Source: a virus | Lineage: Duplodnaviria; Caudoviricetes | IMG/VR virus record: IMGVR_UViG_3300048834_000930 | Coordinates: 1-56,648 of that record | Reading direction: 5' to 3' (one strand) | Length of the DNA stretch: 56,648 nucleotides | Shown: positions 461 to 44,876 of the stretch, piece after piece | How positions within the stretch are numbered: the first letter of the stretch is position 1 | How the letters are laid out: every line of letters starts with the position of its first letter | Made by a program: the position numbers and the translations under genes | The notes under the pieces: generated by a model | Databases searched by the model: none | Seen by the model: only the letters and a program-made list of their open reading frames with translations | What the model was told of the DNA's origin: nothing

Positions 461-841
461 ATGACCACCCTGACTCTTTACCGCGCAGCCGATGCCGACA
501 CTTGGAGCGACTGCGCCAGCTTTGCGGAGAGTCGCGAGGCGGCGGAGTGCTACCTCGATAACCCAGGGTTCGGCGGATCGCGACTGTGGGTCACTACGGT
601 CGAGATCGACGAGTCGGCAGTGCTCGATCTGACCGATTGCGATGACGCCGTGGCCGTCATTGCCGACCGCATCGGCAGTGAGCACCCAGGCGCCATCGGG
701 GCCGACGAGTATGCTCCTCGCGTCTCATATGAGCTCCGCGATGCTGGTGTCGAGTGGGTCCGAGTGCGGGAGTCATACCCGGCGGACACGATCACTTGGA
801 TTTTTGTCGGGTCGGATGACCCTGAGTTGGAGGGGATATGA
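461..841 (+). CDS. small acidic hypothetical protein, possible ADP-ribosyltransferase-like fold
   Basis: Pattern LYRA...SFAESREAAECY...VLDLT...LRDAGVEWV...WIFV resembles phage ART-like domains; ATGA overlap with next gene. Confidence 0.6.
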   Translation: MTTLTLYRAADADTWSDCASFAESREAAECYLDNPGFGGSRLWVTTVEIDESAVLDLTDCDDAVAVIADRIGSEHPGAIGADEYAPRVSYELRDAGVEWVRVRESYPADTITWIFVGSDDPELEGI

Positions 842-1206: not shown

Positions 1207-1914
1207 ATGGAGTACAGAGTATGGAACCCTTCAGAGTGCACGGAGGAGGACGCCCGCGTCATCGAGGCTGAGGATGCCTCACAAGCGGAGCTTACAGCTA
1301 TGACCACCATGAGCGAAACCATGAGCGCATCACACTCCGAGGACGGAGGGTCCGGGTCCTGGTCCGGGTCCGAAGTCCAAGCCGCGTTGAGCGGCGTGAA
1401 ATCGTGCTATCACAAGGATGATTGCACGCCATACGCAGAATACAGTGCGCGACTCACCGACGCCATTGAGAGGGCTAGGGCCCTCCTAAAAAAATGGGGG
1501 CCAGGAGAGGTAATTTCCGAGCCATTCGTGTTCATGAATTTGCTACGACGATACGCTCCTAGTGAGCTAGTCGCGGTGGCGGAGCAGAGGTACACGGACC
1601 ACCTGTCTGTTTGCTCCCAGTGTTATGGGCACGGGAGCCAAACAAGTTACGGCCAGTGCCCGTGGTGCCGCAATGGGATTGTCGGCCCGTTGGGGGCCGA
1701 TGATCGAGTTTGGGCCGAGTACTTCCACGGCGATCTCATGATATTGTGGGGCTCCATACGGGAGTATCAGGCCGCCGGATTCGACCCATCGCACGCTCAC
1801 GCCGCCTGGTTGTTCGGGTGGCCTGCGGCGTCCGGCATCGTTGACATAGAGACCATGCGCGCACACGCGTTGCGCATGGTCAAAGTCGAACTGGTATCAA
1901 GACGATCTGCGTAG
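1207..1914 (+). CDS. hypothetical protein with CxxCxGxG zinc finger
   Basis: CSQCYGHG...CPWCRNG; 235 aa ORF. Confidence 0.65.
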   Translation: MEYRVWNPSECTEEDARVIEAEDASQAELTAMTTMSETMSASHSEDGGSGSWSGSEVQAALSGVKSCYHKDDCTPYAEYSARLTDAIERARALLKKWGPGEVISEPFVFMNLLRRYAPSELVAVAEQRYTDHLSVCSQCYGHGSQTSYGQCPWCRNGIVGPLGADDRVWAEYFHGDLMILWGSIREYQAAGFDPSHAHAAWLFGWPAASGIVDIETMRAHALRMVKVELVSRRSA

Positions 1915-2009: not shown

Positions 2010-2306
2010 ATGGAAGACATCAAAGCCAAGCGAGATCATGCACTATTTACACGGGGGTCTTTTGCGTCGCTGAGTCACGCCAGTGACTACCGTCACGCCT
2101 TTCATGCGGCGTGGCAGGCGTACTACCGCCGCGCGAAGCTATTGCGGAGATCGATCACCGCAAACCAAGCGGCTATCCGAGCGGGCCACGGTCTCTTGCT
2201 GGACCTGCCTGGAGGCATGCGGGAGGCACGCGCACTTCTCCGCCACGCCGCGGCGCAGCGAGAGCAATACATCTCCACCTACGGCTCGCCGATGGCTGAT
2301 GATTGA
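2010..2306 (+). CDS. hypothetical protein
   Basis: ORF downstream of hairpin motif copy 2. Confidence 0.6.
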   Translation: MEDIKAKRDHALFTRGSFASLSHASDYRHAFHAAWQAYYRRAKLLRRSITANQAAIRAGHGLLLDLPGGMREARALLRHAAAQREQYISTYGSPMADD

Positions 2307-2337: not shown

Positions 2338-2808
2338 ATGCCCACGCCAGCCCAACTTCGAAGATTCGCCAGGGTCGCGATCTCTGCCGCTCAGGACCCC
2401 TCATTTCAGCGAGATCTCGCGTCGGTCGACGATCATGAAGCAGACCAGCGCATCATGAGATTTTGGGAGCAGGCTCGCGGCTCACTAATTTCAGTGATTC
2501 GCGAAGAGCTTGGAGCTCGGCACGAGTGGGAAAGCCCCGCTCAATTCGAGATCGAGGTCAACAAATGGAGCCAAGCAGGATTTGGGTCTGAAGACGCTGT
2601 TGCGTGGATAAAAGAAACCTCGAATCCACTAGCCGCGCAAATGCTTGCCGAGCGCGGGTGGACGCCGAGAATGCACAAAGAGTGCCGCGTCGGTGGTCGC
2701 ACGGTCTGCGAACTCCTGTCGAGATCTCGCATGGACCCATCCGTGATTCCGCCGATCGAGGTCGCAAAAGCGGCTAGGTCGGCACAGAAGCGTCGTAGGC
2801 ACTCTTGA
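2338..2808 (+). CDS. hypothetical protein
   Basis: 156 aa ORF; WSQAGFGSEDAVAW motif similar to YQAAGFDPSHAHAAW in 1207..1914. Confidence 0.65.
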   Translation: MPTPAQLRRFARVAISAAQDPSFQRDLASVDDHEADQRIMRFWEQARGSLISVIREELGARHEWESPAQFEIEVNKWSQAGFGSEDAVAWIKETSNPLAAQMLAERGWTPRMHKECRVGGRTVCELLSRSRMDPSVIPPIEVAKAARSAQKRRRHS

Positions 2809-2833
2809 CAGCGCGCTACTAGCCTGGCATCCT
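2805..2833 (+). promoter_or_regulatory. promoter of the CRISPR-like mini-array
   Basis: Perfect TTGACA (2805-2810)-N17-CATCCT (2828-2833) with upstream TG; no credible gene follows. Confidence 0.6.
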
Positions 2834-2845
2834 GCACTCACCGCG

Positions 2846-2949
2846 GTTTTCCGGGTTTGCATCCGGCCCCATTGAAGATTGTTGTTCCGCGGTGTCGATC
2901 TTTCAGATCGATATTTTCCCGCCCAGAAATGGACGGGCCCCATTGAAGC
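2846..2949 (+). CRISPR. cas-less CRISPR mini-array (degenerate repeat, 34-nt spacer, repeat), type I-G(I-U)-like repeats
   Basis: R1 GTTTTCCGGGTTTGCATCCGGCCCCATTGAAGA (2846-2878); spacer 2879-2912; R2 ATTTTCCCGCCCAGAAATGGACGGGCCCCATTGAAGC (2913-2949, 37 nt); both have an internal hairpin and a GGCCCCATTGAAG 3' end. Confidence 0.75.
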
Positions 2950-2990
2950 CCACGCAGTCAATATCGCTCGGCGCGTGGGCTTTCGCTTTG
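2946..2990 (+). terminator. intrinsic terminator closing the mini-array transcript
   Basis: AAGCCCACGC (2946-2955) pairs with GCGTGGGCTT (2973-2982), followed by T-rich TCGCTTTGATTTT. Confidence 0.6.
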
Positions 2991-3128
2991 ATTTTCACGG
3001 CGTAGAGTGCCGCTGAATTGCGCCGAGCAGAGCGATGCGCTACATGAGAGTAGCCCCCGACCTTAGCGAGAAATCGCCGAAGTCACCTTTGCTCCACGTT
3101 GCCGCGAGGCACGTGGATTTTTTTTTCG

Positions 3129-3533
3129 TTACCCAAGCCGCCGAATCGCTACAATCTTACCCGCATCAAATTGCTTCGCGCGCACGCGCTTCCCCTGATT
3201 CCCACCAAGAATCCAGACCGATTCACCATCGAGACGCACGAAAAGCCCGACGTGATAGCCGCCCGGCCGTTGTAAAACAACGACGTCGCCGGGCAGGGCG
3301 AATCGAGCGTTTGCAATAGCTTCGCCCACGTGTCGCCACGACGCCGCGCGCAAGGCCTTCGGCGGTACCGGAGCGCCGCAGGCGGTGGCGATCACCTGCA
3401 TGAAGATGCCGCACCACGCGAGCCGCTGGCCTTTTGCCCACGGAACAATCTGCGCAATCCAACCTGCGACGATCGGGTCCGATTCTTTGATGCCGTAGTA
3501 ACGATGCGCCTCGTAAAGCAGCGCCTTGTTCAT
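3129..3533 (-). CDS. TIGR02594-type NlpC/P60/CHAP-like peptidoglycan hydrolase (endolysin candidate)
   Basis: YYGIKE...AWCGIF...LRAASW...PGDVVVLQR..GYHVGLF...ILGGNQ signature. Confidence 0.85.
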   Translation of the reverse strand: MNKALLYEAHRYYGIKESDPIVAGWIAQIVPWAKGQRLAWCGIFMQVIATACGAPVPPKALRAASWRHVGEAIANARFALPGDVVVLQRPGGYHVGLFVRLDGESVWILGGNQGKRVRAKQFDAGKIVAIRRLG

Positions 3534-3661
3534 ACGAGCTTCTCCGCCTTCGCCTTGCGCCAGAGCTTGAAGATCTTGAATGCCGCCAGAACGACGACGG
3601 TCACGATGGGGATGATGAATTCGTCGAGGATGACTTGCACGGCTTCGGCGTCAATGTCCAT
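3530..3661 (-). CDS. 43-aa single-TM protein, holin-like
   Basis: Translated by hand: MDIDAEAVQVILDEFIIPIVTVVVLAAFKIFKLWRKAKAEKLV; ATGA overlap with the hydrolase; below the ORF-track cutoff. Confidence 0.65.
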   Translation of the reverse strand: MDIDAEAVQVILDEFIIPIVTVVVLAAFKIFKLWRKAKAEKLV

Positions 3662-3744
3662 GCAACCATCGTGATGCAATAGCTCAATCGCGCCGAATCA
3701 AGGCCTTCATTTTGCGAATCCCATCGCATTGGCATGATCGCCCC

Positions 3745-5094
3745 GTGCCAACCGCAGACCGCAAGCACCAGTGCTCAATCGGGGGCATCAAAGTCGTTCA
3801 CAAGTCGAGCTCGCTCAACACGGGTCGCCCGCACAAGACCCACACTTCGGCAACGCGCGACTATTCAGAGGTTGAAGCGCTCCCGTTTCCATCGGAAATG
3901 TTCAGCGAAGAGGTCGACGTCGTCGGCGATAACTTCGATTTGATCGTGCTTCAAATCCTCGAATTGCTCGCGGGCAAGGGGCCGGTCGAGTATGTGCATC
4001 CGACACGCGGGCCACTTTATGTCGTGTTGCAATCGCCGGCGGTGGTGACGGAGCGCCCCGATCGGGTGGTCAACAAGACCCGTCTCCGATTCGATTTCAA
4101 GGTCGCGGCTGTCGAGCCCCCCGTCGGGCCGAAGAAGTTGCCCGCGACGGCGAAGGCCAAAATCGCCATTGCCCAAGAGGGCCTCGACGCTGACTTCGAT
4201 GCCGCGGTCGACACAAACAAACTTGGATTTGCGGACCTCATCAAAAACGTCGTCGGCAAGATTCTCGACGCAGCAGATTTCATCGGGGGCATCAATGGCA
4301 CAGTCGCCGGCAAACTTGCGATCGTGAGCTCGTTGACCTCGGCAATCAAAGAGCTTGAGCGCTCGGTCAATACTTTGGTGCACACGCCGGACCTCGTTCG
4401 CGCGTCGCTCATGTCGCTCGTGATTGCGACGGGAAACCTGGTCAAAACAGCGACCGAACGCTACACCAGCCTTGCACCATTTCGTGCGGCAAACGAGGCA
4501 GCCTCGCAGGGATACGGCCAAGCACTCGGGGCCGTCGGCGGTGCCGATGGGCAAATCAACATCACGCGCCCGGTGGATGCGTCGATCACCATGCTGTCGG
4601 CAATGAAGAAGAGCAACGAGCTTGAGCTCGACGTCTCCGAAATTCCCACGGGTGACGACCAGACGCCGGAGCGCGCGGCCGAGCTCGAAGCGACTCAAGC
4701 GATTCAACGTTGGACTCGAGCGACGCTGGTCATGCAACTCGCGGGTTCGCTCACCAATGTCGAGTGGGAGAGCGAGTCGCAGGTTCGGCATGCGATGGCT
4801 GTCCTGCAGGCTGAAATTGCGAAAGTTCGCGCCGACACTGGTCATTCGCCCGAAACGATTCGATCCCTTCGCGCGGTGACACTTGCCCTCGTTGCCTATC
4901 TCGATTCGCAGCGCTCGCGCTTGCCCGAGCTGCGCATTGTGTCGACGAAGCGGGCGCGCAGCATTGTCTTGCTGGCCTACGATCTCTTCGGTGACGCCTA
5001 CGCCTATCCGCGCCTTCTCTCACGCAACGTCGACTCGATAACCGACCCTGGCCGTCTGCCAAGCGACATCGATCTGGAGGTGCTCGGTGATTAG
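3745..5094 (+). CDS. Mu gp43-like DNA circulation / tail-baseplate protein
   Basis: N-terminus DRKHQCSIGG...GKGPVEYVHPTRG; C-terminus LLAYDLFGD...LLSRN; precedes baseplate hub; start refined to GTG 3745. Confidence 0.8.
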   Translation: MPTADRKHQCSIGGIKVVHKSSSLNTGRPHKTHTSATRDYSEVEALPFPSEMFSEEVDVVGDNFDLIVLQILELLAGKGPVEYVHPTRGPLYVVLQSPAVVTERPDRVVNKTRLRFDFKVAAVEPPVGPKKLPATAKAKIAIAQEGLDADFDAAVDTNKLGFADLIKNVVGKILDAADFIGGINGTVAGKLAIVSSLTSAIKELERSVNTLVHTPDLVRASLMSLVIATGNLVKTATERYTSLAPFRAANEAASQGYGQALGAVGGADGQINITRPVDASITMLSAMKKSNELELDVSEIPTGDDQTPERAAELEATQAIQRWTRATLVMQLAGSLTNVEWESESQVRHAMAVLQAEIAKVRADTGHSPETIRSLRAVTLALVAYLDSQRSRLPELRIVSTKRARSIVLLAYDLFGDAYAYPRLLSRNVDSITDPGRLPSDIDLEVLGD

Positions 5095-6124
5095 GTCGCC
5101 AAAACCTCGCTTGCTGGTCGATGGGGAGGAGTACGCGGGCACGATCAAGTCGGTGCAAGTCACCGCGTCGATCGAGCAGGTCGCCCACTTTTTCACGGTT
5201 GAAACCTTCGTCGCTCGCGGTGCTCCGTTTCCCTTCTACGCCTTTGCGAAGGCCCAGCTCTACGACGGCGACAGATTGCTGGTCGACGGCTACCTTGAGC
5301 AACCCGACGACTCACGCTCTTCGGACGGCAGCACGGTGACGCTCACGGGCAAGTCGCGAACGAACCACTTGCAAGAGGCATCGGCTGCACTCGACACGCT
5401 TCAACTCCGCAACGTGACGCTTGAGAAAATCGTCCGCAAGCTCGTGGAGCCGTGGAAGATTCCCGTCAAAGTCACCGCCGGCGTTGATCAAGGTAAACCG
5501 TTCAAGAAGTTTCGGCTCAACGATGGCGAGACGCCGTTTGAGGCGATGGCAAGGGCGGTTCACGAGCGCGGCTTGTTGATTTACACCGAGACCGGCGCCG
5601 AGGTGATCATCGGCGAGCCCACGCGCGGCCCGGCGCTTTTCGTGTTTCCAGACTTCACCGACGTCGACACGATGATTCGCACCGGCGGCGACATCTCCGG
5701 CCTTGGCTCGCAATATAGCGTGACCGGGCACGGTACGCACATGCTTCTTGGCAAAGACCCGGGCAAGGCAATCGCAACCGTGCTCAATCCGGAGATCACC
5801 GAGCATCGGCCGATCATCATTCAAGCGCAGACGGGCACTCAGTTCAAAGAGCTCGTGAAGCAAGCCGAACGCATCCGCCAGTCGAGAATGGGCAAGGCGC
5901 TGACCTGCAACGTTGAGACCGCGGCATGGTACGGACGCACGGGCCAAATCTGGTGGCCGAACCAGCTCATTCACCTGAGGGCCGATGTGCATGTTGGCAA
6001 GAATAAGACGCTTGACGAAGAGATGGTGCTCTCGACGGTTTACTTGCGGTTTTCGAGCGACGAAGGGTCGTCGTCGCAACTCGAGTTCAAACGCCGCGAC
6101 GCATTCTTGACGGAGGGAAAATGA
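5087..6124 (+). CDS. Mu gp44/P-like baseplate hub protein
   Basis: LLVDGEEY...SIEQVA..F...LLVDGY...GKSRT...GETPFE...WWPNQLI. Confidence 0.85.
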   Translation: MIRSPKPRLLVDGEEYAGTIKSVQVTASIEQVAHFFTVETFVARGAPFPFYAFAKAQLYDGDRLLVDGYLEQPDDSRSSDGSTVTLTGKSRTNHLQEASAALDTLQLRNVTLEKIVRKLVEPWKIPVKVTAGVDQGKPFKKFRLNDGETPFEAMARAVHERGLLIYTETGAEVIIGEPTRGPALFVFPDFTDVDTMIRTGGDISGLGSQYSVTGHGTHMLLGKDPGKAIATVLNPEITEHRPIIIQAQTGTQFKELVKQAERIRQSRMGKALTCNVETAAWYGRTGQIWWPNQLIHLRADVHVGKNKTLDEEMVLSTVYLRFSSDEGSSSQLEFKRRDAFLTEGK

Positions 6125-6837
6125 TGGGACCTCGTGAACTAAGAACATTCATCGACAAGGCAACCGCCACGATCCGCGGGCAAATCCGCGACATGGTGCG
6201 AATCGGAAAAGTTGGGCGACTCAAGGATGACGACGATGTGCAGACGATGCAGGCCGTTGACATGCAAGACCGCACCGAAGACGATGTGATGAACCTGAAT
6301 CACTACGGTCTCTCGACGAATCCACCGGCGGAGAGCAAAGGCCTTCTCGTGTCGATCAACGGCTCAACCGAGCAGTCAGCGATGATCTTCGCGTCGCCAA
6401 GTGGACGCCCAACGGTCGAAGCGGGCGAAGTGATCGTCTGGTCAGTTCATGGGCAGTCGATGAAATTCGCCAAAACCGGTGACGTTTCGATCAGCTGCGC
6501 GGACGATGGCGTCAAGATCGACATGAAGGTGAGCGGCGAAGCGTCGATGGTGGCCAAGACTGGCGCCAAGATCGAGATGAGCACCGCCGGTCAGATCACG
6601 GTGACGTCGCCATCAGCGGCGCTCATCAAGCTCGGCAGTGCGGCCGCCGTGCTCGGCGTTGCTCGATTCACCGATTCGGTAGGTCCTTCGCCCGAGCTCA
6701 TCGCTTACCAGACGTTTTGCGAAGGCCTCTTCAACAGCCTGTTGCCGGGTTCCTTCACGGCGTTCAACAACTTTGCGGCGGTAGTGCTGCGATCTGGAAT
6801 CATCACAGGCGCGAGTGCAAAGACGCTTTCTGCGTAG
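6121..6837 (+). CDS. Mu gp45-like baseplate spike
   Basis: VQTMQ...HYGLSTNPP...RPTVEAGEVIVW followed by beta-helix-like repeats. Confidence 0.85.
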   Translation: MMGPRELRTFIDKATATIRGQIRDMVRIGKVGRLKDDDDVQTMQAVDMQDRTEDDVMNLNHYGLSTNPPAESKGLLVSINGSTEQSAMIFASPSGRPTVEAGEVIVWSVHGQSMKFAKTGDVSISCADDGVKIDMKVSGEASMVAKTGAKIEMSTAGQITVTSPSAALIKLGSAAAVLGVARFTDSVGPSPELIAYQTFCEGLFNSLLPGSFTAFNNFAAVVLRSGIITGASAKTLSA

Positions 6838-7368
6838 TCACGGCTCAAGACCGACATGCGAGAGCAAAGTCGCTACCGTTTGTTGATCGAAGCTCTTCTT
6901 GCGAATCAGCTTCGCGGGCAGGTAGTGATCCCAAATCGACTCTGCGTTGCGTTCTGCTTCGGCGCGAATCTCAAGCTCGCTGTATCCCATTTGCTTCATC
7001 GCGCGAAGGCCGGAGCCATACGCCTGGACTTCGTAAATCCACAACTTGCGCGGCCGAGGGTAGATCAGGATTTCGAAGAGGAATCGCTTGGACTCTTGGA
7101 TCGCGTGAGTTGTCTCGTGCACCGCCACTTTGGCTTGCTGATGCTTTGACTTCTTCTCCCAGTTGCTACCCCACCAGACATGGCCGAAGGCGGTCGTCGA
7201 AAATCTGGACTTTCGGCGCTTCACGCTTGTCTCAAAATCCAAACCATCGAGGAGACTGGCGCACTGCCGTAAGATTGCCTCTGGGTCGCGTAACATAGCG
7301 ACGCCCGGTGGAAAGTTGGCTTTTGAAGACGCGAGAGCGATGTGCTTGGGCTTCAGTGTGAGCAACAT
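6838..7368 (-). CDS. HExxH zincin-like metallopeptidase
   Basis: TTAFGHVW...VAVHETTHAIQ...YEVQAY; antisense insertion in the baseplate operon. Confidence 0.65.
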   Translation of the reverse strand: MLLTLKPKHIALASSKANFPPGVAMLRDPEAILRQCASLLDGLDFETSVKRRKSRFSTTAFGHVWWGSNWEKKSKHQQAKVAVHETTHAIQESKRFLFEILIYPRPRKLWIYEVQAYGSGLRAMKQMGYSELEIRAEAERNAESIWDHYLPAKLIRKKSFDQQTVATLLSHVGLEP

Positions 7369-7416
7369 GGGCAAGAACTTGCCCGCGTCGCCGCAACTCA
7401 CGAATTCAAGGCGTGA

Positions 7417-7929
7417 TCACGCGGCCCAAACCGAATTCGCGGCCTCAAGCATTTCGTCCGCAAATTCGGCGCAAACCACGTTGTCGCCGGCGCAAACCAC
7501 GATGCGTTCGACGGCGCCAAAGTAGCCGCGCGCGATGTAGGTGAGTGCCGTGGCGAACTCTTCGATTTCTTCGATCGAGAGGTAGCTGATATCGACTTTG
7601 AGAGACGAAATACCGCGATGCTCCGCGGCGACAAGCGATGCGCTCAGGAAGTACGACCATCCGCACGTTTCTTGGTCCATGTGCGGCTCGGTGCTCGGAG
7701 CAAGAATGAATCGCTCACCGCCGAGAGTGCAAGGGAATGCAGCCCCAAGGGCAATGGGGAGCTTTCGCAGAAGTGTCGCGTTGAGCTCAGGATGCTTTGA
7801 ACACACGCGGCGCAGCGCTTCGGATGCAACCTCTTCGAAGGAGAGGCCAACGCCAATCGGCACAATCGCACACGCGCCGTCGATGTCCGCACACGCCTTC
7901 TCGCTGACCTCAATCTTGAACGGCTTCAT
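7417..7929 (-). CDS. degenerate macrodomain-like protein
   Basis: IEV...DID..AIVP...VASEAL...PIALGAA...FILAPS...LVAAEHRGISSL...VERIVVC follows the macrodomain pattern; own TTGAAA-N18-TACAAT promoter 6 nt before ATG. Confidence 0.55.
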   Translation of the reverse strand: MKPFKIEVSEKACADIDGACAIVPIGVGLSFEEVASEALRRVCSKHPELNATLLRKLPIALGAAFPCTLGGERFILAPSTEPHMDQETCGWSYFLSASLVAAEHRGISSLKVDISYLSIEEIEEFATALTYIARGYFGAVERIVVCAGDNVVCAEFADEMLEAANSVWAA

Positions 7930-8008
7930 AATGAAATTGTAGACGCATCGGCTGAAAACTTTCAAGCCATGATTTTCGCGCGCGACAAAATTAGAGTATT
8001 GGAGCGAC

Positions 8009-8434
8009 ATGCCTCAACTTGCAGTGCGCTACAACCCAGCGGTGGGCGGCCTTGATTTGGTCAAGAGAGGATCGTCGCACGTCCTCGATGAAGGATATCT
8101 GACCGCGGAAATCTTGTCGGTGAAGATCGAAGCTCGCGCGAGTGTGCGCGGAGGTCCGCCGCGCGGTGGATGGTGGGCAAATCCAATCCTCGGCTCAAAG
8201 CTCTGGGCGCTGCTCGGCGACAAAATCGACGATACGTTCGCGGCACGAGTTCGAACCGAGCTGATTGCCACGTTTCAATGGATGGTGGACGCCAAGATTT
8301 GTCGCAAGATCGAGGCGACGGCGGTCGCAAAGTCCAATACCGTGACAGGCACGGTCACGCTTCATCGACGCGCGGAGAGTTTGACGGAAGTTCGTCGTTG
8401 GGAGTTGAGCGCCGGGGAGTTCACCTATGCTTGA
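8009..8434 (+). CDS. Mu gp46-like baseplate protein
   Basis: RGGWWA...LGSKLWAL...FQWMVDA motif. Confidence 0.85.
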   Translation: MPQLAVRYNPAVGGLDLVKRGSSHVLDEGYLTAEILSVKIEARASVRGGPPRGGWWANPILGSKLWALLGDKIDDTFAARVRTELIATFQWMVDAKICRKIEATAVAKSNTVTGTVTLHRRAESLTEVRRWELSAGEFTYA

Positions 8435-9473
8435 AGTGCCAACGCTTGCCACATTGGTCGCCGAGGGCGAGGCTGCGGTCATCGCCGAGACTGACGTCAA
8501 CGAAGTCACGCGCGATCGGTCTGCCGAGAGCATGATCGTTAAGGCCGTCGCCGAAGCGGCGTTTGGTCTGCATTCCGTCGCTGCGCTTGAGACGAGCCGA
8601 TTCCTGTCGCAGCACAATGCACGCCCATGGGCCAGCTTCTACGGCGTGACGCCGAAGGTCGGCGGAAAAGCGCAAGGCTCCATCACGATCACCGGCACGG
8701 ATGGTGCCGTGTTGGCAATCGGGAAAACGTTCTCGTACGCCGTGACGGGGCTCATCTACGAGGTGATGGCGTCGGCGACGATCGTTTCCGGTACCGCGAC
8801 AACAACGGTGCAAGCGCTTGAGAGCGGCAGCGCGGGGAATATCGTTGCCGGTCAAGAGCTCGACTTGCAGGAGTCGACGGCGGGAATCGATCCGACGGCG
8901 ATAATCGATGTCGGTGGCCTGATCGATGGCTCCGAGCCAGAGACGAATGAAGAGCTTTGGGAGCGAATCTTGCTGAAAGTGCAGAGCCCCGGCGAAGCAT
9001 CGACGCCCAAGAACCTCGAACGATGGGCGCGTGAGATCGAAGGCGTGACGCGTGCGAAGTGCATCTCTGGATACTATGGCCCCGGCCACACCTTACTCTT
9101 ACTCGTCAACGACGGCATCACCGGCCTCGTTCCGTCGCCGACGGTGGTGGCCGATGTCTACGATGCAATTTGGCCAAAACTCGATGAGCCGCGCGGTGTG
9201 CTCGTCGTGTCAGCGTCCAACGTCCAGACGGTCAACGTGACCTATGCGAATCTTGGTAGCGTCAACGACGACGAGAAGGCGGCGATCCTCAAACAGCTCA
9301 AGGATTTGTTTCGCCGGCGAGCGGGGTGGGGCGAGTCTTTGTCGCCCGTCGACATCGATGATGCTGCCGCGGCCGTTGTTTCGCGCCTTCGTTTTTCACT
9401 CACGTCGCCGCTCACAGTGCAAACGGCGAACTCAACCGAGGTCCTTGAACTTGGAACGGTGACTTGGACATGA
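8427..9473 (+). CDS. baseplate J / Mu gp47 wedge protein
   Basis: ALESGSAGN...GSEPETNEEL.ERIL...WAREIEGVTRA...GPGH. Confidence 0.9.
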   Translation: MLEVPTLATLVAEGEAAVIAETDVNEVTRDRSAESMIVKAVAEAAFGLHSVAALETSRFLSQHNARPWASFYGVTPKVGGKAQGSITITGTDGAVLAIGKTFSYAVTGLIYEVMASATIVSGTATTTVQALESGSAGNIVAGQELDLQESTAGIDPTAIIDVGGLIDGSEPETNEELWERILLKVQSPGEASTPKNLERWAREIEGVTRAKCISGYYGPGHTLLLLVNDGITGLVPSPTVVADVYDAIWPKLDEPRGVLVVSASNVQTVNVTYANLGSVNDDEKAAILKQLKDLFRRRAGWGESLSPVDIDDAAAAVVSRLRFSLTSPLTVQTANSTEVLELGTVTWT

Positions 9474-11574: not shown

Positions 11575-11913
11575 ATGAACGACACGTTGACGACAATCTT
11601 CGAACTCTCGTCTTCCGCCATCGGTTCCGAATGGTCGAGCGCTGGAGCAATCATCGCTTTCATGATTTGGCTCGTGAAGCGAGTCATGCGGCAAGCGCAA
11701 AAAGACGTGGGCCAGCTCCATCAGCGATTCAACAACCTCGATGCCCGAAATAACACGATCGAATCACAGCTCTCGGAGTTGCGTTCGCTGCGAGAGCGCG
11801 ACATTGGACGAATGCGGGACGTCGAGAAAATGCAGATCGAGACGATGGATCGCGTGACTGAAATCTGCGAACGCGTGGAGAGCTGTCCAAATCTCGCAAA
11901 CGGCCGGGCCTAG
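11575..11913 (+). CDS. single-TM plus coiled-coil protein (holin/spanin-like)
   Basis: AGAIIAFMIWLV TM segment followed by heptad-rich helix. Confidence 0.6.
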   Translation: MNDTLTTIFELSSSAIGSEWSSAGAIIAFMIWLVKRVMRQAQKDVGQLHQRFNNLDARNNTIESQLSELRSLRERDIGRMRDVEKMQIETMDRVTEICERVESCPNLANGRA

Positions 11914-14900
11914 GCCACGATCGAAAAGCTCTCGCTGTTCGTCGTTCCTGGCTTTCCTGACGTCGTTCGATAGTCCCAACGCACGGAGACGGTGCCGGCC
12001 TTCGTGCCCGGCGGAAAGTCTTCAGTCTCCCATTCGTACGTCGCAACTCCGGTCGCGACGTCGAAGGTTGTTGCGTTGCGAATCTGCTCGACGCCGCTCT
12101 TCGGCAGTTTGAAAAGCAGTCGAACCGTCGTGTTGTCAATGTCGGCCGGAAGGTCGGACAACGTGCAGATAAGCGGCTTTGCAGTGTCTCCGATGCGTGG
12201 CTGATACGCGGGTGGGATGGTCATTGTTGCGGTCCTCGAATCGATCGAGAAGGTCGATGTTCGCGATGTGATTTCAAACTTCGCACTCGTTGACGTGATT
12301 GCAAAACTCGGGAACGAGCCGGGTGCGGGTGTGTTGGGATTGGCCGCCGGGCTTATCGCTGTCGCCGTGAATGCGCGGGCACGCGGTGAATTGCTTTCAG
12401 GGTAAACCTGCGCGCCGCTGTCGATCGATGCTTCGTTCGCTATGCTCGCGGGAAGTGTTGGCTCAGGCGTGATGTCGACGGTGCCGGTTCCCGTGGCACT
12501 CGCTGCATTCGCCACCGTGGCGGGGGCTGAGCTCGCCGGCGTGATATCTGCCGTGCCAGTCGCGTTGGCCGTCGATGCATTGGCTAGGGCCGCAGGTGCG
12601 GAGCTTGAGGGGGTAAGCTCGCTGCTTCCCGTTGACGTTGCTGTGGTCGCGCTTGCAATCGCACCGGCCGTGTTCGCAGAGGGGCTTGCCGATGCATTGC
12701 CGGACGCAGCGGCCGTCGTCGTGTGAGCGAGCGATGACGCCTCTGTGCCCGATGGGGTTACACTCGAGTTTCCCGTAGCGATGAGTGTGGCGGGGTTTGC
12801 AATTGCGCCGGCCGGCGGACTCTCGGGCGTGACTTCATTACCCTCCCCGGTTGCTGTTGCAGAGTTTGCCGAGGCCGCAGGAGCGCAACCCTCCGGCGTG
12901 ACGGCTGCGTCTCCGTAGGCCGTTGCCGTTGAGGTGTTGGCGATTGCCGCTGAATTGCAGCTCTCGGGCGTGGCAGCCGCATTGCCGGTCGCGTTCGCGG
13001 TGCTGGCGTTGCTGGTCGCGGCAGGATCGGGGCTCGACGGTGTCGCGCTAGCGTCTCCCGTAGCCGTCGAGGTTGATGAATTGGCGATCGACGCAGGACT
13101 GTTGCTCGCGGGTGTGGCGTTTGCGTCTCCGGTAGCCGTCGCGGTCGATGAGTTGGCGATCGATGAGGCCGCAGGACTCTGCGGCTCAGCGGTCGCAGTT
13201 CCGCTTGCCGTCGCCGTCGAAGCAATAGCAATGCTCGCCGCTTCGTTGCTCGCGGGTTCGATTGTTGCCGATCCTGTCGCGCTGGCGGTCGCATCGTTGG
13301 CGATTGCACTGGCCGGAGTGCTCGAGGGCGAGGCGTCGGCGCTGCCGGTACCGACCGCCGTCGCTGAATTGGCAATGGATTGCGGAGAGGTTGCCGCCGG
13401 CGAGGCCGATGCGTCGCCGCTCGCACTTGCCGTCGTGGAGTTGGCGACACTGGCCGCGACGGTTGAGTCGGGCGTGACCGTTTGGTCGGACGCGGCTGCG
13501 GGCAACTTGAGCGCAAGGTAGGCAATCTCAGCAGTGCCCGCGCGCGGCGTGTCCCAAGTGATCGTCGGTGTTCCCGTGAGGCTGAGCGATCCGACATCGA
13601 TGACGCTCCCGCTCGAATCGTAATGGCCGATTGCTCGCGACGTGTCGCTTGCTTGCGTGCCTTCGGTCAGCGACCCGATGAGGTCCGCCCACGTGCGAGC
13701 GTGCGACTGACCGCTTGCATCGGCAACGCCGACGGCCATATTTACGTGGCCAACGATGACGTCTTTAACATCGCCACCGGTGACGACGATCATGAGATCT
13801 GGATCGTCAATCGACCCGATAGACGTCGTCGATGCGCTCGCCGCCTTTGTGACCGTCCCGATGTCAATCTCTGCGCCGTCAAGAAAGAGTGCGAAGTGAG
13901 TAAACGAGTCGCTATCACTACCACTCCATGAGATATCCGAGTATCCTAGCGACGTTGCGCTTGCTGACCAGGTTTCAGCATTGTTATAAATCTGCTCAGA
14001 AAACGCATCGGTTGCGAGTTTTGAGTGAACGTGCGAGCTGCTGCCATCTGGAGAAAATGCTGACCACCCGACGCACCACTGCTTGAGATCGTCGGATATG
14101 TCTTTAGCGATTGCCCCAAACGCGAACATGGGGCCGTCTGTCGACAGAGTAAACGTGTTCGCCGTTGTTGAAACAAGGACGAGGTCTGGAGTAAATTTAG
14201 CTGCGCCAAACGGAAGCGACCCCGAACTTACAGCCGTGGCGTAGTTCCACCATAACATCGTTCGGCCGCCAAAGGCGATCCAGTGGATGATCCTCGACTC
14301 CGTGTCGGTCGTGGTGAAATTTATCGAGAATCCGTCGGATGTTGCAGTTACGGTGCCTAACCGAGATGTGTTGTTGTAGATGTACCCGTAGTTGGATCCG
14401 GCAGCGCGCCGCCCCTTTGTTGCATACGATGCGGCGTCCGCCCGGCCAGCTCCATGATAGCGCCCTGAAGTGGATGCCGAGAAACCGACCCCTTGGCCTG
14501 AAACCTGCGAAGTTCCAGTTCCTGCGGATGTCCACAAGTAGATCGCTTTAGGGGTGAATGACAGCCCGGTGACTACCGATGTGGATCCGGTTGTAGTTGG
14601 CGCGTTAAATGTTCCAGACGCGCAATGGATATCCGGCTGCGAAACCGCGAGCTTACGACTCGGTAAAAATGCATCGCCATTAGCCACGCAGAGATAAAGC
14701 GAGTCCGATTCGTCAAGCGAACCAAACTCAATATCGAACGTGATCGATGTGTCGCTCCACGATGTAACGGTCTGAACAACGGATGTGCCTACGCCGTTTT
14801 GATACGAAGTGCTAAGGATCAGATCATAGGCTTGCGTTGCACCAAATCCAGCGCCAGTAGCAACGACGCTCACCGAGTCTGGACGGGCGAGGTCATTGCA

Positions 14901-14936
14901 GTTGATTGCCGGATCTTTAATGTTGGTGAAGTACAT
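11910..14936 (-). CDS. 1008-aa fibre/appendage-like protein with Ala/Ser/Thr repeats and C-terminal BppU-N-like domain
   Basis: Beta-rich N-terminal half, about 15 imperfect 24-aa repeats, C-terminus IGDTAKPL...GVATYEWETED...G. Confidence 0.75.
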   Translation of the reverse strand: MYFTNIKDPAINCNDLARPDSVSVVATGAGFGATQAYDLILSTSYQNGVGTSVVQTVTSWSDTSITFDIEFGSLDESDSLYLCVANGDAFLPSRKLAVSQPDIHCASGTFNAPTTTGSTSVVTGLSFTPKAIYLWTSAGTGTSQVSGQGVGFSASTSGRYHGAGRADAASYATKGRRAAGSNYGYIYNNTSRLGTVTATSDGFSINFTTTDTESRIIHWIAFGGRTMLWWNYATAVSSGSLPFGAAKFTPDLVLVSTTANTFTLSTDGPMFAFGAIAKDISDDLKQWCVGWSAFSPDGSSSHVHSKLATDAFSEQIYNNAETWSASATSLGYSDISWSGSDSDSFTHFALFLDGAEIDIGTVTKAASASTTSIGSIDDPDLMIVVTGGDVKDVIVGHVNMAVGVADASGQSHARTWADLIGSLTEGTQASDTSRAIGHYDSSGSVIDVGSLSLTGTPTITWDTPRAGTAEIAYLALKLPAAASDQTVTPDSTVAASVANSTTASASGDASASPAATSPQSIANSATAVGTGSADASPSSTPASAIANDATASATGSATIEPASNEAASIAIASTATASGTATAEPQSPAASSIANSSTATATGDANATPASNSPASIANSSTSTATGDASATPSSPDPAATSNASTANATGNAAATPESCNSAAIANTSTATAYGDAAVTPEGCAPAASANSATATGEGNEVTPESPPAGAIANPATLIATGNSSVTPSGTEASSLAHTTTAAASGNASASPSANTAGAIASATTATSTGSSELTPSSSAPAALANASTANATGTADITPASSAPATVANAASATGTGTVDITPEPTLPASIANEASIDSGAQVYPESNSPRARAFTATAISPAANPNTPAPGSFPSFAITSTSAKFEITSRTSTFSIDSRTATMTIPPAYQPRIGDTAKPLICTLSDLPADIDNTTVRLLFKLPKSGVEQIRNATTFDVATGVATYEWETEDFPPGTKAGTVSVRWDYRTTSGKPGTTNSESFSIVA
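12350..13480 (-). repeat. about 15-16 imperfect 72-bp (24-aa) coding repeats
   Basis: Units such as TPDSTVAASVANSTTASASGDASA and SPAATSPQSIANSATAVGTGSADA; boundaries approximate. Confidence 0.85.
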
Positions 14937-16688: not shown

Positions 16689-17909
16689 GTGCCGAAACTT
16701 GTCAAAAAAGTCATCGAGCAGGCCGAGCCTCGAGCCCGGCCGTACGAGATCATGGATGACGAATTGCGGGGCTTCGGGGTCCGCATTCAGCCGTCATGCG
16801 CTCGCACGCCGAAGGGCACGCGTGTGTTTTTCGTGCGCGTGTACCCGCGAGGAACCGATCGAGAGAAGAAGGTTACGCTCGGCGTCTATGGCGTGATCAC
16901 TATCGACGCCGCCCGCGACAAGGCAATTCAGATCCTTGCTACTGCGCACGAGGGTGGTGACGTTCGACCGGCGCCGTTACCAAGCGTGATGACGGTGGCG
17001 GAATTGGCGAGAATCTATCTCGATCAGCACCTTGCAGTGCACGGAACGAGATCGACGCAGGTGGCGGCCAAGTCACTTTTCAATCGACACCTCATTCCGC
17101 GCTATGGCGAGTATGACGTCGAGAAAATCGATTTCGCGGCGGTGGCCAAACACCATTCGGAGCTTGGCGCGACGAATCCAGAGGTGGCCAATCGGATGGT
17201 CACGATGCTCGCCGCGGTTCTTGCGTGGGGCACCTCGCACGGTCATCGGCGGTCGGCGACGACGCCATGCAAGTGGGACAAGCGCGGGCGAGTCGGAGTC
17301 CGCAAATTTCAGGAGAAGCCACGCGAACGATTCCTGACCGAGGAGCAGGTGCAAAAGCTTGAGATGGCCTTGCGAAACGCGGAGAGCATCGACGGCAAGC
17401 GCAAGGGAGCGGTAAAGATCGATACCTGTGAACTGATCCGCCTCTTTCTCTATACCGGCGCGAGGTTCGGCGAGCTCCACAAGATCACTTGGTCGTTCGT
17501 GGACTTGGAGAATCGAAGGTTGCGTCTCTATCAAACGAAAGAAAAGAAACCAAAGTTCATTCCGCTCAGTGATGGCGCATTCGAGATTTTGGAACGACAC
17601 AAGAATCGAAGGAAGAACGAGCCAAGCGATCGCGTGTTCGACTGCTACAACCCACAACGATCGTGGTCAAAAATCATTCGACCCGCCGCCGGTCTTGATG
17701 CGACCGAGGACGAGCAGGCTTTCACCATTCACGGCTTTCGACACAATCTCGCGTCAATGGGCTTGAACGACGGGCTCTCGCTCCGGACGATCGGTCAATT
17801 GTTGGGTCATTCAAGCGAGAAGACAACCGCTCGCTATGCCCACTTTGCGGACCAGACTTTGACCGACGCCATGCAGCGCATCGGCGACAAGATTAAGCGA
17901 AAGAGCTAG
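16689..17909 (+). CDS. int: tyrosine integrase with arm-binding domain
   Basis: N-terminal DDELRGFGVRI...VTLGVYG; catalytic TGARFGE, HGFRHNLAS, LLGHSS..TT.RY. Confidence 0.95.
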   Translation: MPKLVKKVIEQAEPRARPYEIMDDELRGFGVRIQPSCARTPKGTRVFFVRVYPRGTDREKKVTLGVYGVITIDAARDKAIQILATAHEGGDVRPAPLPSVMTVAELARIYLDQHLAVHGTRSTQVAAKSLFNRHLIPRYGEYDVEKIDFAAVAKHHSELGATNPEVANRMVTMLAAVLAWGTSHGHRRSATTPCKWDKRGRVGVRKFQEKPRERFLTEEQVQKLEMALRNAESIDGKRKGAVKIDTCELIRLFLYTGARFGELHKITWSFVDLENRRLRLYQTKEKKPKFIPLSDGAFEILERHKNRRKNEPSDRVFDCYNPQRSWSKIIRPAAGLDATEDEQAFTIHGFRHNLASMGLNDGLSLRTIGQLLGHSSEKTTARYAHFADQTLTDAMQRIGDKIKRKS

Positions 17910-44096: not shown

Positions 44097-44876
44097 ATGG
44101 GTCGTAGTTCGCAAACTGAAGAATCAAAGTGGCGCAAGAGGGCTATTGCGCTTGAAAACCGACTGAGTGACCAGGAGCGGCGCTATGCCATCGCTCGTGC
44201 TGCAGGGCTGCCGAAGGGTGAGTCGGCGATAGCGGCCGGTTATTCAAAGAAATCGGCTCCGTCGATTGCTTCGAGGTGCGAGTCGAGGGGGCGGGTGCAG
44301 GAATATATTTCGCTACTTCGACGAGGTGTGGTCACGAAGACAGCGCTGTCGACGAAGAATATTGATGCACTCATCCGTCGCAATGAGGAAAACGATGAGT
44401 TCGAGCAGTCGTTAGATCGGTTGCGCATGAAGGTCCTCCAGCCCGACATCGATCTCATTTCGGCCGATCCAAGCGACATCTTCACCGTCGAGAACGGGCG
44501 AGTCATTTGCAAGGACTTTAAGGACCTCACGCCATCGCAGCGCAAGCGAATCTCGGGCTTCAAATATCAATTCGAGCCTGGTGAGAATGGGAAGTCGTTT
44601 CTCATCGTCGAGCTCTACAGCCGCGACAAGGCGCTCGATCGACTGCACTCGTACCTCGGCTTGAAGGGTAAGGGGGCGATCCTCGGTGAGCTGATTTCGC
44701 CGCCGAAGAAGCCGGAACAGGAAGCGGATGCGCCGGCAAAGGGTATTGAGCGCGGCATCTCGAAGGCCGCCGCCGACATGGTCAAGGCCAGCATCCTCGG
44801 GGTTGACGCACTGCCCAGTGACGAGGAGGCGAAAGATCTGCTCGGGGACCAAGACGAACCGAAGGACGACGCATGA
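44097..44876 (+). CDS. terS: terminase small subunit
   Basis: LSDQERRY...SAIAAGYSKKSA...V..YI; ADPSDIF; LYSRDKALDRL..YLG. Confidence 0.85.
   Translation: MGRSSQTEESKWRKRAIALENRLSDQERRYAIARAAGLPKGESAIAAGYSKKSAPSIASRCESRGRVQEYISLLRRGVVTKTALSTKNIDALIRRNEENDEFEQSLDRLRMKVLQPDIDLISADPSDIFTVENGRVICKDFKDLTPSQRKRISGFKYQFEPGENGKSFLIVELYSRDKALDRLHSYLGLKGKGAILGELISPPKKPEQEADAPAKGIERGISKAAADMVKASILGVDALPSDEEAKDLLGDQDEPKDDA

Follow-up and report, generated by a model that had tools for sequence, protein, structure and literature searches.

A cas-less type I-G CRISPR mini-array on a Mu-like phage that most likely yields one guide-like RNA

What could two unlike CRISPR repeats around a single spacer be doing in a phage record in which no cas gene is found? 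Cas-less repeats and mini-arrays carried by phages are an established way to exploit or disarm host CRISPR, and in the main texts of the papers cited below these elements belong to subtypes I-B, I-C, I-E, I-F, V-A and others, not to I-G. The locus that we analyzed lies in IMGVR_UViG_3300048834_000930, the 56.6-kb record of a temperate Mu-like myovirus (estimated completeness 82%; G+C 53-63% in 2-kb windows), and all 56,648 nucleotides of this record are referred to here as the window. A first-pass annotation had described a stand-alone type I-G-like mini-array with its own promoter and terminator, and we recovered every sequence feature that it listed, at the same positions (Table 1). Since the locus combines two type I-G repeats, one spacer and no cas genes, it is most likely a cas-less type I-G mini-array that yields one guide-like RNA and borrows the Cas proteins of the host.

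Table 1. Features of the mini-array and its surroundings, with positions in the 56,648-nt window
Feature	Position	Strand	Basis or remark
ORF, 156 aa	2338..2808	+	ORF list; upstream of R1
Possible promoter (TTGACA 2806-2811, 17 nt, CATCCT 2829-2834)	2806..2834	+	inference from sequence
R1, shortened type I-G repeat, 33 nt	2846..2878	+	covariance-model match, Rfam CRISPR-DR16, fold
Predicted mature 71-nt crRNA-like RNA	2871..2941	+	inferred from the published Csb2 cut (PMC9638904)
Spacer, 34 nt, 47% G+C	2879..2912	+	3' half forms a hairpin
R2, full-length type I-G repeat, 37 nt	2913..2949	+	covariance-model match, Rfam CRISPR-DR16, fold
Terminator-like hairpin, T-rich tail	2945..2996	+	5' arm overlaps the last R2 bases
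Second terminator, specific to the + strand	3095..3126	+	stem 3102-3116, then nine T
CHAP/tail-lysozyme-like ORF, convergent to the mini-array	3129..3533	-	phrog_1259, E 2.9e-15
Mu-like baseplate genes	from 3712		baseplate families

The two repeats are built alike but differ in their stems. In R1, six base pairs (2851-2856 with 2861-2866) close a tetraloop and are followed by CCCC (2867-2870) and the handle ATTGAAGA (2871-2878), while in R2 the stem pairs 2918-2925 with 2930-2937, with one C/A mismatch, ahead of CCCC (2938-2941) and the trailing handle ATTGAAGC (2942-2949). R2 folds at -10 kcal/mol; the R1 hairpin does not exceed shuffled sequence in stability (z = -0.14). Common to both is GGCCCCATTGAAG, found in two copies 71 nt apart and nowhere else in the record (a reversed control pattern gave 0 matches). 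TTTTCC is likewise shared, and 19 flank positions agree between R1 and R2. The stems are unrelated in sequence and in length, and both still pair, which confirms the earlier statement that hairpin structure is kept while its sequence differs. Identical flanks around unrelated yet paired stems argue for selection rather than decay. We also considered whether the repeat could be coding, on the minus strand, and rejected this because a spacing of 71 nt is not divisible by 3.

We assigned the repeats to a family by layout, by profile search and by the genes beside related arrays. R2 has the complete type I-G layout (36-37 nt, a 7-8 bp hairpin, 4 nt and an 8-nt ATTGAAGC-type handle), and R1 follows it except for its 6-bp stem and the final A of its handle. 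When the window was scanned on both strands with filters off, a covariance model of 91 repeats placed R2 (38.8 bits, E 2e-9) and R1 (22.1 bits, E 2e-4) at the top of the 56.6 kb, with the next match at 10.2 bits; these scores are partly circular, since an 11-nt motif from the window served to gather the family, and the pattern used for this fixes 11 of the 37 model columns as invariant. Comparison with a repeat database succeeded in part: Rfam CRISPR-DR16 matched the same two intervals (R1 21.5 bits, R2 20.9 bits), but both stayed below its gathering score of 35 bits. Canonical copies from 12 viral loci score 42-54 bits under our model, above both repeats. Across the family the hairpin covaries: 90.8% of cells are paired and 161 cells change on both sides, compared with 69.0% and 45.6 in shuffles. 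Family arrays adjoin Cas4g/Cas1g, Cas7g and Csb2 in three of the four host loci tested (L021, L039 and L086), and at the fourth (L051) neither of two ORFs tested had a cas match; L136 carries Cas3g and Cas8g, and L116 carries Cas7g. The published Csb2 cleavage site lies 4 nt past the base of the hairpin, on its 3' side, and leaves an 8-nt handle on a 72-nt crRNA (PMC9638904). The covariance-model matches, the cas genes beside family arrays and the hairpin, 4-nt and 8-nt-handle layout, which agrees with that report, thus support membership of R1 and R2 in the type I-G repeat family, as the first-pass annotation had proposed.

The locus is nonetheless no canonical array. It shares with canonical I-G arrays (Thioalkalivibrio, PMC9638904; CRISPR-DR16) the repeat length, the hairpin, 4-nt and 8-nt-handle order and a unit length near 72 nt. 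In place of near-identical repeats, however, it has only two, with unrelated stems and with scores below those of canonical copies under the model and below the Rfam gathering threshold, and it shows no cas genes or sign of spacer acquisition. We sought five I-G cas families (Csb2, Cas7g, Cas4g/Cas1g, Cas8g and the Cas3 core) in the record, estimated as 82% complete, and found none, in agreement with the earlier description; as a control, the Csb2 search recovered three of three known genomes.

The elements for transcription are of unequal quality. Of the promoter proposed earlier, the -35 hexamer is perfect and in place, but the -10 fits three of six positions and the pair went uncalled in a consensus promoter scan. 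The upstream ORF runs into the TTGACA hexamer with its stop codon, and one transcript could therefore cover both this ORF and the mini-array. The terminator proposed after R2 is supported: a 10-bp inverted repeat (2946-2955 with 2973-2982) leads into the T-rich tail, the hairpin folded alone reaches -22 kcal/mol (z = -3.06; one of 200 shuffles as stable), and its inner stem was called terminator-like by the scan. The second terminator folds at -11.9 kcal/mol (z = -2.54). The scan did not call the spacer hairpin between R1 and R2 a terminator.

Cleavage at the published Csb2 position would leave an RNA made up of an 8-nt handle, the 34-nt spacer and a 29-nt 3' hairpin part. This exact one-crRNA geometry favours a crRNA-like RNA loaded into Cascade over a decoy made of bare repeat. 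The spacer is within the natural range of lengths (309 of 2018 natural I-G spacers have 34 nt), and 948 of the 2018 fold as stably as it does (-8.0 kcal/mol) or more so, as do 15% of those matched for G+C. Its perfect 7-bp stem is uncommon, with stems of at least 7 bp in 33 of 2018. Overall stability is therefore ordinary, and the earlier suggestion that a structured spacer hints at a decoy loses its ground. The pairing of leader and spacer that had also been noted (CACCGCGG with CCGCGGTG) is present in the minimum-free-energy fold, where it depends on a palindromic CCGCGG core. Natural I-G spacers average 60% G+C; the lower value of this spacer, below theirs and below that of the phage record, would fit a target in a promoter.

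For the function of such an RNA, we tentatively favour a fixed, long-retained regulatory or anti-defence role over that of an anti-phage guide. The alternative is a weapon between mobile elements, in which the same 71-nt crRNA, again loaded into host I-G Cascade, fully matches a competing phage, prophage or plasmid and host Cas3g destroys the competitor, giving superinfection exclusion. Conflict between viruses by way of viral CRISPR mini-arrays has reportedly been modelled in an earlier study. Canonical unit geometry and a normal spacer length are what this alternative would expect, and surveys place most viral mini-array spacers on related viruses (PMC11656645; PMC10120712). Other cas-less viral I-G mini-arrays are also found in our collection, among them one of two repeats and one spacer in a complete genome (L006), and spacer 1 of L003 matches its own upstream region at 23 of 25 bases, as expected of a guide against close relatives.

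The first-pass annotation had envisaged a competing element or a host cas promoter as the target, and neither came to light. The spacer had no blastn match in isolate phages, five plasmid matches that all stand at E = 3 and hence at chance level, and 0 exact matches in either viral or metagenome contigs; the searches of phages, plasmids and contigs tolerated few mismatches. Within the window its best alignment (21/34) equals that of shuffled spacers, and its seeds (11/14 bases) occur three times, again the chance level. Against 120 host I-G loci (763 kb) the best alignment was 22/34, compared with 21-24 for shuffled spacers, and these loci contained no TTN-flanked seed match of at least 9 nt. 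The locus resembles inter-viral mini-arrays in that these have one or two spacers, carry no cas genes and need host Cas proteins. Their repeats, however, are described as identical to those of the host and their spacers as matching related viruses (PMC11656645), whereas R1 and R2 are unlike and sub-canonical and the spacer matched no related virus or mobile element in the searches run. A missing match is not unusual for this phage, since two of its proteins had no relative in the viral collection beyond a 24-residue stretch. On balance we consider the weapon reading somewhat unlikely.

The portal protein of the phage reaches at most 36% identity in isolate phages, at most 37% in Acidobacteriota (3 of 301 genomes sampled) and 28% in Planctomycetota (1 of 301 genomes sampled), and the array region had no blastn match in isolate phages. 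Pattern searches of viral contigs gave no match for the baseplate-hub protein and 24-residue matches only for the upstream ORF, which has no Pfam or PHROG family, atlas matches all below 0.9 and a single homologue (P0002, 53% identity) that we did not locate in metagenome or viral contigs. The ORFs adjoining the mini-array gave no informative family or atlas match and no recognized anti-defence family. Most of the other viral contigs that carry I-G arrays show no relationship to the window: of eight loci whose ORFs were compared with it by tblastn, six had no match, and L004 (35% identity over 166 aa) and L005 (25% over 122 aa) had one weak match each. None of 2067 I-G spacers matched the window (best, 20 nt with one mismatch), and no repeat of the collected I-G loci is close to R1 or R2. 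Among the sequencing runs searched for the locus no RNA run came up, and one DNA run coded as soil metagenome contains a small share of the locus words. A 243-nt contig from this soil run covers 2887-3123 with eight differences, four of which we placed at 2947, 2960, 2962 and 2980; the first of these lies inside the R2 trailing handle.

A second phage carries a comparable element. L010 is a complete phage with terminal repeats, unrelated to this one, and has three unlike repeats (33.8, 39.9 and 24.3 bits), the last of them without the unused handle; its two spacers had no more than chance-level matches in isolate phages. A scan for viral repeats ending in GAAGA returned ten stretches, among which the only convincing repeat was that of L010: eight score at most 18 bits, and L152 (26.6 bits) lies in a GC-rich stretch. 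Locus L013, a coding false positive, was dropped from all repeat counts.

These data bear on the view that the locus is a remnant: a piece of a host I-G array that the phage acquired and that now decays by drift, without function. Such a fragment could account for a short, low-scoring R1 whose hairpin does not exceed shuffles, for the failure to find a target and for a change within R2 in the soil contig. Drift, however, should strike flanks as often as stem, whereas here the flanks are identical and the stems wholly different yet paired; the change at 2947 falls in the sole part of R2 that no crRNA would use; and L010 repeats the same streamlined pattern. We judge a remnant improbable. Less probable still is a Racr-like decoy, in which one or both repeats would soak up Csb2 and Cas7g in dead-end complexes around a sequence that is no guide (or, if the spacer hairpin and UAUUUU acted as a weak terminator, as two tandem single-repeat RNAs), for although the repeats mimic features that Csb2 would be expected to recognize, a perfect -35 hexamer lies just upstream, a hairpin follows each repeat, the spacer stem is rare and Racrs are established in other subtypes (PMC10651486), one repeat would suffice for a decoy, the spacing is exactly one crRNA unit, the parts kept (the R1 handle and the full R2 hairpin) are those that a guide RNA needs, the spacer is of ordinary overall stability, and the intervening hairpin was not called a terminator. 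Like this locus, Racrs mimic repeats on a phage and stand between a promoter-like site and a terminator; the locus differs from their single, partnerless repeat in having two, 71 nt apart, and the Racr pipeline leaves out of account repeats that form pairs within 100 bp (PMC10651486). The main text of that paper contains "I-G" 0 times, and its supplementary lists may differ.

We observed that host I-G loci contain degenerate mini-arrays of their own, with spacers in partial agreement with TTN-flanked sites close by. The L021 spacer matches 19 of 20 PAM-proximal bases next to a TTC PAM between cas4g/cas1g and cas7g, that of L136 matches 16 of 18 bases at a promoter-like site ahead of cas3g, again with a TTC PAM, and that of L057 matches 15 of 17 (mismatches at positions 6 and 12) with a TTT PAM. 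These host mini-arrays near cas3g and cas7g suggest, from their sequences, that I-G systems too may be self-regulated by crRNA-like RNAs.

We favour the regulatory or anti-defence reading of the phage element because its unlike, sub-canonical repeats and the final A of the R1 handle recur in these self-targeting mini-arrays. A handle-final A occurs in 4 of 2230 repeat copies, including the L021 psi-repeat and the second repeat of L010, and the L136 psi-repeat has it too; the link is thus drawn from very few cases, and the first repeat of L057 ends in C. L010 counts in favour, as the same degenerate-repeat pattern in another phage, and the lack of a target, the neighbours without a recognized anti-defence family and the surveys of viral spacers count against. 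On this reading the phage element would be the viral counterpart of host I-G mini-arrays aimed at their own cas promoters.

The course of events that we infer runs from transcription through processing and loading to a regulatory role at a target, the last two being the most conjectural. The RNA would be transcribed either from the weak-looking candidate promoter of the mini-array or by read-through from the upstream ORF. Host Csb2, a Cas5-Cas6 fusion, would cleave on the 3' side of both hairpins, each time at a distance of 4 nt (after 2870 and 2941), and so free one 71-nt crRNA-like RNA in which a 34-nt guide stands between handle ATTGAAGA and the R2 hairpin. Host Cas7g, Cas8g and Csb2 would then assemble on this RNA, which would occupy Cascade and, by partial matching, could steer it to a site in the host, for instance the promoter of cas3g or of cas7g.

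Among the closest known systems are Cracr, the regulatory crRNA-like RNAs of viruses, and the degenerate CreR/CreA mini-CRISPRs of hosts. Like these, the locus is a cas-less phage element with degenerate, non-identical repeats (unlike stems, sub-canonical scores) around one spacer-length segment, predicted to be loaded into host Cascade. To count as a Cracr candidate, an element had to agree with a host CreA/CreR spacer at 9 or more PAM-proximal positions (bioRxiv 10.1101/2024.10.29.618823, Liu et al.); no such match turned up for the phage mini-array in the 120 host I-G loci. They are described for V-A, I-F, I-E, I-C and I-B, with no I-G in the main text, supplements aside (10.1101/2024.10.29.618823). 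A rather unlikely proposal is that subtype I-G here has its first regulatory crRNA-like RNA from a virus, one that guides Cascade to a host cas3g or cas7g promoter. It would picture one fixed guide between deliberately unlike repeats, resistant to recombination and conserved in shape only, with the rare handle-final A as a mark common to it and the host mini-arrays L021 and L136.

The mini-array, with its predicted RNA at 2871-2941, and L010 offer concrete I-G cases for tests on a reconstituted I-G effector. The unlike hairpins of the mini-array between identical flanks provide a natural read-out of what Csb2 needs for recognition. The degenerate mini-arrays of host I-G loci, a side observation here, may come to outweigh the phage element itself.

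The 13-mer GGCCCCATTGAAG occurs twice in the record, 71 nt apart and with no third copy, and the other sequence features listed in the first-pass annotation were likewise all found in the window. We scanned viral and genome collections with an 11-nt core of this motif, requiring two copies at array spacing. The viral collection gave 15 matching loci, of which 14 are arrays (L013 was rejected as a coding repeat and left out), and the genome collection gave at least 120, with arrays in many bacterial and some archaeal phyla. Repeats of this family are 36-37 nt long, with a T-rich/CC 5' flank, a stem of ~8 bp whose sequence varies between arrays, and an invariant 3' end, GG-CCCC-ATTGAAGC. Stem covariation across 91 distinct repeats is strong: 90.8% of cells are paired versus 69.0% in shuffles, both sides have changed in 161 cells versus 45.6, and slid controls are 32-43% paired. 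ORFs adjoining the arrays at L021, L039 and L086 encode Cas4g/Cas1g, Csb1/Cas7g and Csb2; genes for Cas3g, Cas8g, Cas1 and Cas2 lie near the L136 array and one for Cas7g near that of L116, while neither of two ORFs tested beside the L051 array gave a match. Because I-G cas genes adjoin its arrays, the family is confirmed as type I-G at the level of sequence.

We built a covariance model from the 91 repeats and ran it unfiltered on both window strands. It scored the 37-nt second repeat (R2) at 38.8 bits (E 2e-9) and the 33-nt first repeat (R1) at 22.1 bits (E 2e-4), with all other sites at or below 10.2 bits; these scores are partly circular since the collecting pattern fixed 11 invariant columns, leaving as pattern-independent parts the 5' flank, stem and GG before CCCC. 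The curated Rfam model CRISPR-DR16 marked exactly the same two intervals, with scores (21.5 and 20.9 bits) that fall short of its 35-bit gathering threshold. These model matches, together with the cas genes beside family arrays, bear out the earlier claim of type I-G repeats. Separately, a minus-strand inter-ORF hairpin at 1981-2002 reaches 10 bits against the repeat model and has TGGACGG in common with the R2 stem; a terminator or a chance match is the probable explanation.

By gene content, the 56,648-bp viral record (estimated completeness 82%) is a temperate myovirus whose morphogenesis genes are Mu-like. The record opens with an HTH regulator (80-388), matched by several PHROG families of regulators, and continues with five same-strand ORFs of no family; the mini-array ends this block (80-2808), which could be an accessory or anti-defense island, and the baseplate module comes next. 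Elsewhere, a 1008-aa minus-strand ORF (11910-14936) with no Pfam or PHROG family lies in the record's most compositionally skewed stretch (AT skew -0.21, G+C 0.625).

Coordinates of the mini-array, its phage neighbors and comparable elements
Record	Feature	Position	Strand	Remarks
Window	R1	2846-2878		first repeat
Window	R2	2913-2949		second repeat
Window	156-aa ORF	2338-2808	+	function not assigned; one flank of mini-array
Window	CHAP/tail-lysozyme-like ORF	3129-3533	-	convergent; other flank of mini-array
Window	Baseplate genes	3712-9473		
Window	Integrase	16689-17909		
Window	Recombination directionality factor			
Window	Large terminase	44873-46384		
Window	Mu-type portal, Mu-type protease, sheath			
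Window	Tape-measure protein			reaches past 3' end of record
L010 (viral)	Array	2114-2286		antisense between two minus-strand ORFs; three unlike I-G repeats, two spacers
L021 (host)	Psi-repeat element	3425-3560		solitary, degenerate, ends ATTGAAGA; between cas4g/cas1g and cas7g
L136 (host)	Psi-repeat element	ends at + 3541	-	degenerate; preceded by TTGACA-N17-TATCAT
L057 (host)	Mini-array	590-700		two repeats, unlike stems; Planctomycetaceae MAG
L116 (host)	Repeat pair	1214-1297		degenerate + canonical; ~470 nt from start of divergent cas7g (5-748, -)

Model searches of the record for five I-G families (Csb2, Cas7g, Cas4g/Cas1g, Cas8g/Csx17 and the Cas3 core) found none, in line with the reported lack of cas genes, in a record from which about one-fifth of the phage genome may be absent; the Csb2 search recovered the gene in all three genomes known to have it. 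Other phages with I-G mini-arrays are similar: Csb2 was not found in any of five such viral records, including L006 and L010, both rated complete.

In the only biochemically characterized I-G system, as PMC9638904 describes it, Csb2 cleaves 4 nt downstream (3') of the base of the hairpin to leave an 8-nt 5' handle and remains bound to the 3' hairpin after cleavage; the system has mature crRNAs of ~72 nt and a TTN PAM. R1 has the family architecture minus two base pairs (6-bp stem, tetraloop), R2 is full length with a single C/A mismatch in its stem, and the 34-nt spacer is of normal length (309 of 2018 natural I-G spacers are equal). Csb2-type cuts would fall after 2870 and after 2941, releasing a predicted 71-nt RNA in which ATTGAAGA is followed by the spacer and then by the R2 hairpin plus CCCC. 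Overall, a crRNA-like RNA is likely formed with host Cas proteins.

The two repeats are identical in TTTTCC and GGCCCCATTGAAG, and their stems, each of which still pairs, are unrelated in sequence and length. Across 12 viral loci, canonical copies score 42-54 bits and degenerate terminal copies 24-36 bits with the covariance model; both window repeats fall under the canonical range. The array most like this one is that of L010, a complete phage (36 kb, terminal repeats) whose 12-kb locus gave no tblastn match to the window. Its repeats score 33.8, 39.9 and 24.3 bits. Like R1, the first measures 33 nt and the second ends in GAAGA; the last keeps its hairpin and CCCC and has lost the handle, which is useless to any crRNA. 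A related contig of 243 nt, from a run labelled as soil, resembles L010 in that its sole located difference within R2 (2947) is in the unused trailing handle; this is a single contig of low depth, with four of eight differences not located. On a 46.7-kb viral contig, a solitary repeat-like match ending GAAGA (L152:13283-13323, 26.6 bits) sits where the sequence is GC-rich and possibly coding.

Host I-G loci carry degenerate mini-arrays with spacers that partly match nearby TTN-flanked sites. At L021, the 34 nt after the psi-repeat match a TTC-flanked site 72 nt downstream at 26 of 34 positions (19 of the first 20), and the element looks like a CreR-type autoregulator of subtype I-G. The spacer-like segment of L136 matches (16/18) a TTC-flanked site at + 4310 that overlaps a promoter-like TTGACT-N17-TATACT upstream of cas3g (4717-7353), with cas8g next; the 3' stem arm of its repeat pairs with an 11-nt segment beyond the spacer. 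The L057 spacer matches (15/17, mismatched precisely at positions 6 and 12) a TTT-flanked site at 302, ~310 nt upstream, and neighboring ORFs had no family match; at L116, a search for a nearby partial target found none. All four look, from their sequences, like I-G versions of CreR-type autoregulators, so unlike, degenerate repeats would accompany regulatory use in I-G. A preprint tabulates mini-arrays in 4% of 235 I-G loci without main-text discussion (PMC10120712).

Among 2230 repeat copies carrying the exact core motif in listed arrays L003-L137, most handles end in C (2010) and the others in G (168), T (48) or A (4). The L021 psi-repeat and the second L010 repeat are two of these four, the L136 psi-repeat and R1 also end in A, and the first L057 repeat ends in C, a comparison that rests on small numbers. 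Because of this shared rare base and the partial matches at host loci, we tentatively favor a regulatory or anti-defense crRNA-like RNA. The low spacer G+C (47%, versus a mean of 60% in natural I-G spacers and 53-63% across the record in 2-kb windows) would suit a promoter target.

Somewhat less probably, the RNA guides Cas proteins against a competing element. According to PMC11656645 and PMC10120712, the spacers of viral mini-arrays are for the most part directed at related viruses, and in the four-repeat viral mini-array L003, spacer 1 (477-511) matches its own 353-377, ~100 nt upstream, at 23 of 25 positions, the same signature and that expected of a guide hitting close relatives while sparing self. 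For either use, searches of the window, isolate phages, plasmids and 120 of the host I-G loci, and exact-match searches of viral and metagenome contigs, found no target of the window spacer.

Decay of a former array is unlikely. If decay were random, it would not have left untouched precisely the positions that the family holds constant, so the R1/R2 pattern points instead to selection on features recognized by the processing enzyme, or to assembly from different sources, and a drifting remnant is therefore disfavored. The poorest candidate is a decoy, for which the first-pass annotation had cited the structured spacer: its stability (-8.0 kcal/mol) is ordinary, being equalled or exceeded by 948 of 2018 natural I-G spacers, or 15% when GC is matched, which weakens that argument, although its perfect 7-bp stem is indeed uncommon (33/2018).

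Type I-G is absent from the main text of the paper on phage-borne solitary repeats (Racr; PMC10651486), and the survey section on viral regulatory crRNA-like RNAs (Cracr; preprint 10.1101/2024.10.29.618823) gives V-A, I-F, I-E, I-C and I-B, whereas the window mini-array is I-G; going by main texts, it is possibly the first I-G example among viral cas-less elements. Since both these classes and inter-viral mini-arrays (review PMC11656645) are already established in those sources, the mini-array extends a known kind of phage element and adds no new principle.
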